Shown here piece by piece: positions 15,001 to 18,000 of a stretch of DNA of 64,000 bases. Made by a program: the position numbers. Within the stretch, counting starts at the first letter, position 1, and each line of letters starts with the position of its first letter. This stretch comes from a virus. Its lineage: Duplodnaviria > Caudoviricetes. The stretch covers positions 1 through 64,000 of the IMG/VR virus record IMGVR_UViG_3300037400_003125; one strand, written 5' to 3'.

Positions 15001-18000
15001 TATGGTAAAGTCTTGTCGTATTGGTCCCCTGGCAAGGCTCCCAGCTGATCCGTGTCTTTGACCTGAACATTGTTTCTAACGAAAATAATTCTTTCAAATT
15101 CTTCATCTTGAACCGCCTCAAGCGCTGCTACTATACACATCATTGATTTACCGCTACCAAAATTACCCGTAATGAGTTTGAGCGGTATATCTTTCTGTTT
15201 TAACAGGTCCATCGCGCAGTATTGCTGTGGATTGCGCGGCTTCATATCACCAGTAAATTCGCTCCCAATCAAAGGAAATTTAAGCTTTTTTAGCTCTTCT
15301 TTCGCAAACCTATAATAATCTACGGCTTCATGTTGTTCATTTTCTATAATTAAATATTGATTTTCTAAAAGTTCAATATTACTATTGCCGCTATAAAATT
15401 GACCCATATCGTGGTCATTCAAAGTTAAAATTTTATAACCAGTATAATCCATCTACCCCTACCTCTAAAGCATTACACTAATATCTTCAACCCATTCGTT
15501 TACGATACCTTTTTCTAAAAGTTCGTCGCCTCGAATGTACCAATCTGTTGCAATATTTTTGTGTACTTCTTCTTCGGTATAAAGTGTATTTTCTATATAA
15601 AATTTTTCCATCTTCTCGACTTGCTGTTTATAATCTTCCATTGCCGCAGCAATTTCATTATAATTTCCACCCATATTCTGACAGCTTCCTCTATGAAGAA
15701 TGAAGTACGCATTAGGAAGTGCAAAACGCTTATGGCAACTTAAATAGATTAAGCTGGCCGCGGATGCCACCATACCGAGCGCGAAGCCATAGACAGGTGT
15801 TTTTGAAAGTCGAATCATTGAAACAAGAGTTTCTTCTATATCTAGGTCGCCGCCAGGACTATTGAAGAAAATTTTAATCGGCTGACGATTTTCTGGAGAA
15901 ATCGCTTTGTCTTCTCTATTCCACTCGATAATCTTAGAAACTATGTCTAAAAGACCATCTTTTATCTCACAATCTATCCAAATAACCCTATTGCGCAGAT
16001 CCTTAAATTCTTGGATCAAAGATGGGTCTGGTAGTTGTAAATTAGATTCAGGTATTCCTTGAAGTAATAATTCTATGAAATCTTCCATATAAGACCTCCA
16101 AACAAAATACTTTTCTATATAATAAGTAGAACTTCTTTACTTCTACTCGACTTTTTTAATAAAAAAGGGCACAGCTCACGCCATGCCCTTATTCTAAAAT
16201 TATATAATTTTAGAAAATTGAAGTAAAGAAATCTACAAAATCTTTATCCATATCTGTATAGGACATATGGAATGCACCGTAATCCTTGCAGAATTCGCGA
16301 AGAAGTTTATCGTACTTTGCGCGAGCTTCTACAGCAGCCTTGAGTGCGTCTTCTACTTCCTTTGCGCGAGCCTTACGAGTTTCAACTTTCTTTGCTTCAG
16401 CCTTAGCCTTTTCATCAGCAATCCTTTTTGCTTCGGCTTCGGCCTGCTCACAAGCTTCCTGTGAGTCAAAGAGTTTGTTAAGATTTTCAGAATAGAACTT
16501 CATTATAAACCCTCCTTTTGATTTATAATTTCTAAGAAAAAGACCGCCGTGATCAAGGGCGGTCTGTCCTAGGACTACTAGTGGAAGAGTTCTGATGTCT
16601 TCAATTCAGCTCTTGCTTCGGGTTTTCGTTATGGAGAGGTACTTCTGCGCCGTAGAGCTTTAACGCTTGCGCTTGCGTTACAGAAGATTCATGCTACGTA
16701 CACCTACATACTCCGCCAACACCAGTTATACAACAATTACAGTTTTAGGAAATTTTTTCTGCCCCTGCTAACCAATGGCACCAATAGGTTACGTACTATC
16801 GGACTACGGCTCAATATTTACGACTCGATACAAAGTCGGTTAAATAATGCAGTTTTAATGGTTACTCGCTAACGATTCCTGCTAACCATAGCGGCAAACT
16901 AACGACGTTTACTAGCGTACAACTATTGTTAAGTCCGTAGTTGTAATTACGTCATACTTACTTTCGTTTCTTTAGTATTTTAAGAGCAGCTCCAAATGAC
17001 TAAGCCACATATCTTCCACGTGAAGCCAGTGGTAGTTTAGTATGAAATCCATCCTCTCCTACTCTACACGATTTAATTTATAGAGGTCGAGTGCGAGACC
17101 TCTTGGCATCATTTTATTTTCTAAGAGGAGGGTGACGTCTCCTCTAGGAGGTAGGTCTCGAACCTACATTCTCACGCCTTCGGCGCAAGCTGGGATACAA
17201 AGTAAAGAGCGACTTTACTTACACACTTGCATTTGACGGCGTAGTCTTATCCTTTTAGATGACTCCCGTGCACCACCACTTGTATTGGGAGGTTGCTGCG
17301 GCGTTCCCATGGTTGCGGTCGGAGGATTCGAACCTCGTCCTCAGGTAATGAGCCTGATGAGCTACCATTGCTCCACCACCGCGATAAAATAAACTTGAGA
17401 ACTAAATAAATAAACTACTCTCTATTGAGCCTTCGCTCTACTGCGATTATATACCAACATATTCGACCAAATGGGAGATAAGTCTGAGCCAAAAGACCGT
17501 CGCCTTAAGACTTCTTACCCCAGCCGAAGCCAGTTCCATTAGAGGACTTTTTATACCCCTACCTTTCACGGGACATTCAGAAAAAAGCATTGTATCACCA
17601 ATCCTTGAATGTCACAAATTCTTTTGCTGCGCGCTTTCCGCTAATCGGAGTTGCATACAAGTGTTATACACGATTTTCATCGCTTCACCGCACAATCGGC
17701 TTGTTGGTATTTCCAGAGTTTATCACAGTCACCAGCTAAGACCTTATCTGGATTCAGCACAAGCTATTAACTTGGGCTTCTATTGCGCCGACCACTCGCA
17801 CACTGTCTTTGTCTATATATAACCCAGCATGGACAGCACGTATTTGACCGCTCTCGGCTCTTAACTTAAATAAGTCGCCTTATTAAGTGAGGTAGTATCA
17901 ACAAGTATCCTTGCTTTGTTTCCGCCCATACGGTTTTAAGCTTAGTTCATCTCAGCTTTCAAGTCGCTTGAAATCTGCACTGAGTTAATAAAGTTAGTTT

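Follow-up and report, generated by a model that had tools for sequence, protein, structure and literature searches.

ROOL and GOLLD are examples of the enigmatic structured RNAs that are known from phage tRNA islands, and the tRNA gene cluster of phage T4 encodes small stable non-tRNA RNAs (species 1 and 2, rnaC/rnaD). Drum and skipping-rope have been described as highly conserved small structured RNAs with terminators after them, for which a role as riboswitches or self-cleaving ribozymes was considered improbable (Weinberg et al. 2017, PMC5737381). In gut phages, theta ribozymes resembling that of hepatitis delta virus (HDV) adjoin phage tRNAs (PMC10879173). Here we consider a non-coding stretch at positions 16534-17103 on the minus strand of a 64-kb window (that is, all of the DNA analysed, positions 1 to 64,000 of the 95-kb IMG/VR virus record IMGVR_UViG_3300037400_003125); the virus that hosts it is an uncultivated phage, probably of rumen or gut origin. 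The stretch is quite probably a head-to-tail chain of independently folding modules, A, C, C, and B, and not one giant pseudoknotted RNA. A and B are separate RNA families outside Rfam 15, resident in phage tRNA gene arrays in tRNA-like slots; their folds, their covariation, their separability, and their tRNA-array context are established in this analysis. The modules and their helices are the following:

16946-17067, minus strand: module A, a pseudoknotted RNA of ~120 nucleotides (nt) (model R2, 86 bits)
17065-17059 / 16989-16983, minus strand: module A helix H_D, AGAGUAG with CUGCUCU (computed plus by eye)
17044-17039 / 16958-16953, minus strand: module A helix H_A (covariation)
17032-17029 / 17008-17005, minus strand: module A helix H_B (covariation)
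17025-17022 / 17016-17013, minus strand: module A helix H_C (covariation)
16849-16889, minus strand: module C copy 1, a candidate H-type pseudoknot with stem AUGGUUA / UAACCAU and a loop GCAG pairable with a downstream CUGC
16739-16776, minus strand: module C copy 2, UGGUUAGCAGG ... UAAAACUG, with a weaker stem
16572-16731, minus strand: module B (the "core"), a three-way-junction RNA of ~150 nt (model R1, 150 bits)
16725-16720 / 16583-16578, minus strand: module B helix P1 (covariation)
16714-16711 / 16636-16633, minus strand: module B helix P2a (covariation)
16705-16702 / 16640-16637, minus strand: module B helix P2b (covariation)
16686-16681 / 16647-16642, minus strand: module B helix P3 (covariation)
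16614-16606 / 16595-16585, minus strand: module B helix P4 (covariation)

Related phage contigs were first found through the downstream 97-amino-acid open reading frame (ORF) and the ClpP-like gene, and then by pattern scans with conserved strings in viral contigs, metagenomes, and genomes (the loci are given below by L numbers). Two independent conserved units, A and B, came out of these homologue scans. One pattern, AGCAAGAG-N8-30-AACTCTTCC, gave chiefly chance matches, with ~13/118 being genuine. The carriers of the modules are metagenomic phages plus one contig of a Lachnospiraceae metagenome-assembled genome (MAG). Among cultured phages, blastn against 50,697 genomes left the entire stretch, module A, and the mini form of module B without a match, and no Rfam 15 family matches any of the modules (E ≤ 5-10).

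Module A is recognized by the signature ACUACYACYGGC-N8-38-GAUAUGURG, which matches at least 119 IMG/VR contigs, and model R2 gives 85 matches with scores of 59-107 bits. In H_D, a 5′ extension outside H_A pairs with a segment inside H_A; since H_D thus crosses H_A, the module is pseudoknotted. In the other subclass, H_D is formed by GCGUU with AACGC, and one of its column pairs reads GC in 29, CG in 21, and UA in 8 cases. RNAalifold applied to 50 sequences recovered H_A, H_B, and H_C plus a 2-bp contact. Across 77 distinct sequences, 96.8% of the pair cells are paired versus 32-41% in slid controls, and the covariation score of 0.697 (0.151 in shuffles) was reached by 0/500 shuffles. A by-eye comparison of the window with L018, L010, L011, and L008 illustrates the compensation: CAUAC / GUAUG in H_A is replaced by CGCAU / AUGCG, AAGUU / AACUU, or CGACUU / AAGUCG, CCAC / GUGG in H_B by CUAC / GUAG, and CUUC / GAAG in H_C by CAUUU / AAAUG or CAGGG / CCCUG. 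Compensatory change preserves most of H_A and H_C across many lineages. Among the matches listed, module A is nearly always placed within a tRNA array; a same-strand tRNA lies within 150 nt (median 59 nt) in 92/118 copies of module A, and ROOL-stalk-like sequence directly follows the module in 14/118.

No Rfam family covers module A. Drum was tried as its relative and rejected; in L085, drum lies immediately upstream of module A. The 5′ regions of L003 and L004 bear a distant resemblance to module A by eye and give no match to model R2. Within the subclass with GCGUUAACAYGG, three positions co-vary (alignment A8, columns 17, 122, and 214), one each in A[U/C]GG of the 5′ extension, a central G[U/C]GG, and GC[A/G]AAG toward the 3′ end; Watson–Crick pairing is possible for the G[U/C]GG and GC[A/G]AAG positions only. 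This three-way covariation may reflect a base triple, an alternative pairing, or merely two clades.

Model R1 was built from a first alignment of 12 module B sequences, in which 97% of the pair cells were paired and compensatory change was seen in 19/29 pairs. With 26 distinct sequences, 96.3% of the cells are paired versus 40-49% in slid controls, compensatory changes affect 23/29 pairs, and the observed values were reached by 0/500 shuffles. Compensatory changes preserve pairs in both A and B, an indication of purifying selection on the two structures. The invariant parts of module B are GUUGG after P1, the internal loop GUACGYAGYAUGA between P2b and P3, CUCUACGG within P3, the joining strand AUAAYGAAAACCCGNAGC, and a sequence-conserved stem AAGAG / CUCUU followed by CC, while inserts in P3 range from none to about 100 nt. 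A possible pseudoknot CUACGG / CCGAAG is nearly invariant with zero compensatory changes, and CCCGNAGC is retained in mini forms without CUACGG.

Short relatives of module B (~60-80 nt) lack the long P2-P3 arm and lie 4-12 nt from tRNAs. In the ~60-nt forms (L131, L114, L183, L243, L245, and L270), P1, GUUGG, CCCGNAGCAAGAG, the hairpin, and AACUCUUCC are kept and the whole P2-P3 arm is gone; in the ~75-80-nt forms (L098, L235, and L266), a short linker or a small GNRA hairpin replaces the arm. No Rfam family covers this mini-core. The P4 hairpin of five mini forms (L183, L235, L243, L245, and L270) is an identical GCCGAGUAGUAUCCGC despite different samples, and its stem is imperfect; identity in spite of an imperfect stem suggests a sequence-specific loop motif. 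Most copies of module B are housed in tRNA arrays, where the distance to the next downstream tRNA is 5-12 nt in L059, L192, L245, L270, and L114. A ~60-nt copy at L245:13931-14003 (minus strand) is placed just as a tRNA would be in the array: tRNA-Ile and tRNA-Arg flank it, at distances of 8 and 6 nt. The Lachnospiraceae MAG contig (L059) bears one copy of module B, whereas a search with model R1 of 150 other genomes from the family of that MAG yielded none.

A and B are separable: in other phages they occur apart, in either order, or with tRNAs between them. The order in L010 is ROOL, B (2490-2632), tRNA-Met, and A (3346-3504), and in L020 it is A, tRNA-Asn, and B; in L008 and L009, A is present and B is absent from the fetched locus. 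Full-size B was found in 0 of 100 module-A loci (0.9 Mb), and one contig carries A and B in separately fetched loci (L011 and L232). A-B fusion without an intervening tRNA is confined to the window and L018, and the genome of the window has a single copy of each module.

The island to which the stretch belongs runs on the minus strand in the order promoter, ROOL, tRNA-Met, a tRNA-like element, the studied stretch, and the terminator:

23017 to 17310, minus strand: array of 20 tRNAs (ARAGORN)
18087-18059, minus strand: promoter-like site with 11/12 matches plus TG
17407-18008, minus strand: full-length ROOL RNA (RF03087; Rfam, 290 bits)
17310-17383, minus strand: tRNA-Met, upstream of the studied stretch (ARAGORN, Rfam)
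17082-17103, minus strand: 7-bp hairpin AGAGGUC...GACCUCU just upstream of module A (-10.9 kcal/mol, z -2.65)
16534-16565, minus strand: intrinsic terminator, an 8-bp G+C-rich stem 16565-16558 / 16548-16541 with a 9-nt loop and a U-tract (-18.6 kcal/mol, z = -5.0)
16210-16503, minus strand: 97-amino-acid ORF downstream of the terminator

As to transcription signals, the region's only strong promoter-like site is the one before ROOL, and a strong terminator comes after B. The terminator is kept in L018 according to the alignment, which places another hairpin at the position equivalent to 17082-17103. After the terminator, the gene order is the 97-amino-acid ORF, a ClpP-like protease, PhoH, and RNA ligase. 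In L003 and L004, a TTGAAA-17-TATAAT promoter-like site immediately precedes the module-B-containing RNA.

From this position it may be supposed that the modules share a transcript with the tRNAs and are set free by tRNA-processing enzymes, with RNase P acting at the 5′ end of the next tRNA and a 3′ endonuclease at the preceding tRNA. The closing stems H_A and P1, as their placement suggests, would then shield the modules as stable small RNAs, and the invariant loops would interact with a partner from the tRNA or translation machinery, be it protein or RNA. Here the modules would stay joined as one ~0.5-kb 3′-terminal transcript segment, and processing of tRNA-Met would define its 5′ boundary. 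The T4 species 1 and 2 RNAs offer a likeness by description: they are small, lie among phage tRNA genes, and are co-transcribed and matured with tRNAs, and they differ in source from the modules, which come from metagenomic phages and one Lachnospiraceae MAG contig.

On the same presumed transcript, ROOL itself is found 240 nt upstream. ROOL and GOLLD (RF01998) share with the modules a non-coding, highly structured, and phage-borne nature and a place beside tRNA islands. Unlike them, the modules are far shorter (120 and 150 nt, with ~60 nt in the smallest forms), occur separately, and have no match to them in sequence or structure: in 16450-17400 at E ≤ 10, neither the Rfam ROOL model (threshold 99.1 bits) nor the GOLLD model, with its conserved 3′ domain, finds a match, and GOLLD also has none in the relatives at the gathering score. 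Oligomerisation is not claimed as a shared trait. Drum and skipping-rope are found in the same kind of loci and differ from the modules in sequence and fold; neither Rfam model matches the window.

Several points weigh against the chain of independent modules and the functions supposed for it. That the modules are stable partner-binding RNAs is an argument by analogy, and tRNA-like excision into stable small RNAs is deduced from position. In this phage, A, C, and B may be cut apart or may act as one RNA, both being compatible with the data. Module C counts three instances (two in the window and one in L018) and has no structural support. Finally, in the window and L018 a contact between a loop of module A and the P3 region of module B is possible, UGGAGCU (about 16999-16993) with AGCUCUA (16659-16653); L018 has GGAAC and GUUCU at these sites, one apparently compensatory change, so that some cooperation of A and B in the fused form is conceivable. 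Both sites are variable, and for that reason the contact may be a coincidence.

Whatever their function, the locus contributes two well-supported RNA folds new to Rfam 15, one of them matched in at least 119 IMG/VR contigs. Such RNAs act as movable cassettes, which can occupy a tRNA-like slot by themselves, shed or acquire arms, or be fused behind ROOL. Their modularity provides compact, testable constructs (about 60, 120, and 150 nt) for biochemical and structural studies, and it points to a systematic, under-annotated class of genes in the non-tRNA content of phage tRNA arrays.

One alternative, doubtful as we consider it, assigns the modules to tRNA metabolism. According to it, the module B scaffold (P1, GUUGG, CCCGNAGCAAGAG, hairpin, and AACUCUUCC) would be a new RNA of this kind, either a self-cleaving or processing ribozyme or a binder of the tRNA 3′ end via UGG, with A as its pseudoknotted partner and the fused A-C-C-B chain behind ROOL as a multi-domain machine instead of a group of passengers. 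A related proposal, to be regarded as unlikely, is that module B, in its full or its ~60-nt form, cleaves itself and trims tRNA precursors as HDV-like theta ribozymes do, and would thus be a new ribozyme. B indeed lies very close to tRNA ends, its junction nucleotides GUUGG, CCCGNAGCAAGAG, and AACUCUUCC are invariant, and tRNA-adjacent ribozymes have a gut-phage precedent in the theta ribozymes, which, like module B, are small structured RNAs a few nt from phage tRNA ends (PMC10879173). However, there is no Rfam ribozyme match, in the window it is the terminator and not a tRNA that comes after B, and by eye the P1/P4 scaffold is not the nested double pseudoknot of HDV-like ribozymes, in which P1 crosses P2, P1.1 is added, and a catalytic C opens J4/2. 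When the HDV-like fold was mapped onto the mini-core by eye, P4a was found to pair locally with covariation, and a single C stands between P4 and P1, where J4/2 would lie; the by-eye mapping fails, no Rfam ribozyme model matches, and the fold was set aside as improbable for the mini-core. An RNase P-like identity was also discarded: the short similarities to RNase P J5/15 and CR-V noted by eye do not persist from family to family, and neither do GGCUUA, GAAAGUCC-like, and GAGCAAG-like strings.

A cis-regulatory leader seems a rather poor candidate. It would make B an aptamer that senses a ligand or factor and governs the terminator stem-loop at 16565-16541 and hence read-through into the operon of the 97-amino-acid ORF, the ClpP-like gene, and PhoH. 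The order B, terminator, ribosome-binding site, homologous small ORF, and ClpP-like gene is indeed found in the window, L018, L003, L004, and L038. However, the copies of module B that lie between tRNAs weaken a riboswitch: B is located between tRNAs or a few nt before one in L020, L059, L192, L245, L270, and L114, and in L010 it directly follows ROOL without an immediate terminator and ORF. Moreover, what precedes this ORF in L010 and L011 is module A with a terminator, not B. By eye, no conserved alternative pairing between B and the terminator is seen; the segments that might form one are not alike in the window and L038, and a conserved antiterminator was rejected.

The first-pass annotation had described 16570-17110 as a single ~0.5-kb RNA of a new large structured phage class, held together by a global pseudoknot in which two long-range helices cross, with a duplicated internal motif. 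The segments in question are as follows:

17059-17053, minus strand: GGAGAGG, 5′ strand of the proposed helix 1
16639-16633, minus strand: CCUCUCC, 3′ strand of the proposed helix 1
17019-17012, minus strand: GUGGAAGA, 5′ strand of the proposed helix 2
16588-16581, minus strand: UCUUCCAC, 3′ strand of the proposed helix 2
16888-16878 and 16774-16764, minus strand: two copies of the UGGUUAGCAGG repeat
16857-16850 and 16747-16740, minus strand: UAAAACUG, downstream of each UGGUUAGCAGG copy

A sequence check located all of these motifs, with their complementarities, where they had been placed. It also holds true that the stretch is ORF-free, with zero minus-strand ORFs of at least 30 amino acids in 16570-17110, that it lies downstream of tRNA-Met (17310-17383), and that it is closed by a genuine terminator (z = -5.0). 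Signatures of transfer-messenger RNA (tmRNA), RNase P, and signal recognition particle RNA, said to be missing, are indeed absent: 16450-17400 matches no Rfam 15 family except tRNA, even at E ≤ 10, and ARAGORN calls no tmRNA. The RNA is non-coding, structured, and not in Rfam 15, and homologues show strong covariation in two of its parts, modules A and B. A pseudoknot does exist, inside module A; the global one, and with it a single ~0.5-kb RNA class, finds no support.

A single RNA with the crossing helices GGAGAGG / CCUCUCC and GUGGAAGA / UCUUCCAC is very improbable. It may be said in its favor that in the window and L018 no tRNA separates A from its neighbor B, and that GGAGAGG and CCUCUCC are identical in L018. 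However, complementarities of such size occur at chance frequency: in the 541-nt stretch, 11 perfect 7-mer complementarities were observed versus 10.1 in shuffles, and 2 perfect 8-mer ones versus 2.3, so that helices of the proposed 7-8 nt are expected by chance. The minimum free energy (MFE) of the whole region is unremarkable (z = -1.4, minus strand). In addition, both 3′ partners belong to local helices that covary, and in many phages A and B lie apart. Each segment of helix 1 has a conserved local role: GGAGAGG shares positions with H_D and with GAGAGGAUGG, a motif kept in many phages without full-size module B in the fetched loci, and CCUCUCC is the 3′ strand of P2 in module B, where its local partner is GGAG...AGGU with compensatory changes (e.g., GAAG / CUUC in L022 and GCGG / CCGU in L039). 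Helix 2 is already contradicted: in the closest relative, L018, 3/8 positions could pair, with UCUUCCAC unchanged, while the overlapping local hairpin covaries. Here, GUGGAAGA overlaps CUUC/GAAG of H_C, which reads CAUUU/AAAUG in L018 and CAGGG/CCCUG in L010, and UCUUCCAC forms the 3′ side of two local helices with covariation, P4 (P4a) and P1.

That the modules are functionless remnants of decayed tRNA genes or non-functional spacer is hardly credible, since, even if the topology of B (P1 and then P4 directly on the 3′ strand, the only feature shared with tRNA) recalls an acceptor/T-arm stack and a tRNA-like T arm lies nearby at about 17150-17170, compensatory changes keep 23/29 pairs of B and most of H_A and H_C across many lineages, and neither ARAGORN nor the Rfam tRNA model (RF00005) calls a tRNA within 16534-17103.

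Module C, the third member of the proposed chain, is a small candidate pseudoknot. It was not found elsewhere in 1.57 Mb of related loci, shows no covariation, and has MFE z-scores of about 0; a comparison with preQ1-I-type H-type pseudoknot aptamers gave no Rfam match. The exact 11-mer direct repeat of its two copies is uncommon by chance (17/500 shuffles). Copy 1 belongs to a window-specific insert, absent from L018:

16803-16941, minus strand: insert between ACUACGG (16941-16935) and CCGUAGU (16809-16803), containing module C copy 1

The ACUACGG / CCGUAGU helix bracketing this insert is without comparative support.

The T arm mentioned above belongs to a tRNA-like element at about 17146-17267 (minus strand), between tRNA-Met and module A, in which the arm is perfect (GUAGGUUCGAGACCUAC) and which ARAGORN does not call. 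The element is absent from L018, and a comparable T-arm-like piece (GUAGGUUCGAUUCCUAU) occurs in L010 at about 2985-3030, immediately upstream of the tRNA-Met of that locus. Among other non-tRNA content, related phage tRNA arrays carry tmRNA, drum, and skipping-rope (L073:1296-1636, minus strand; L243:1829-2161, minus strand; L085:4198-4291; L077:4600-4727; and L065:1708-1777), and a sub-threshold match to the twister-P1 ribozyme (36 bits versus a gathering score of 67) is located in a phage tRNA array at L049:2074-2125 (plus strand).
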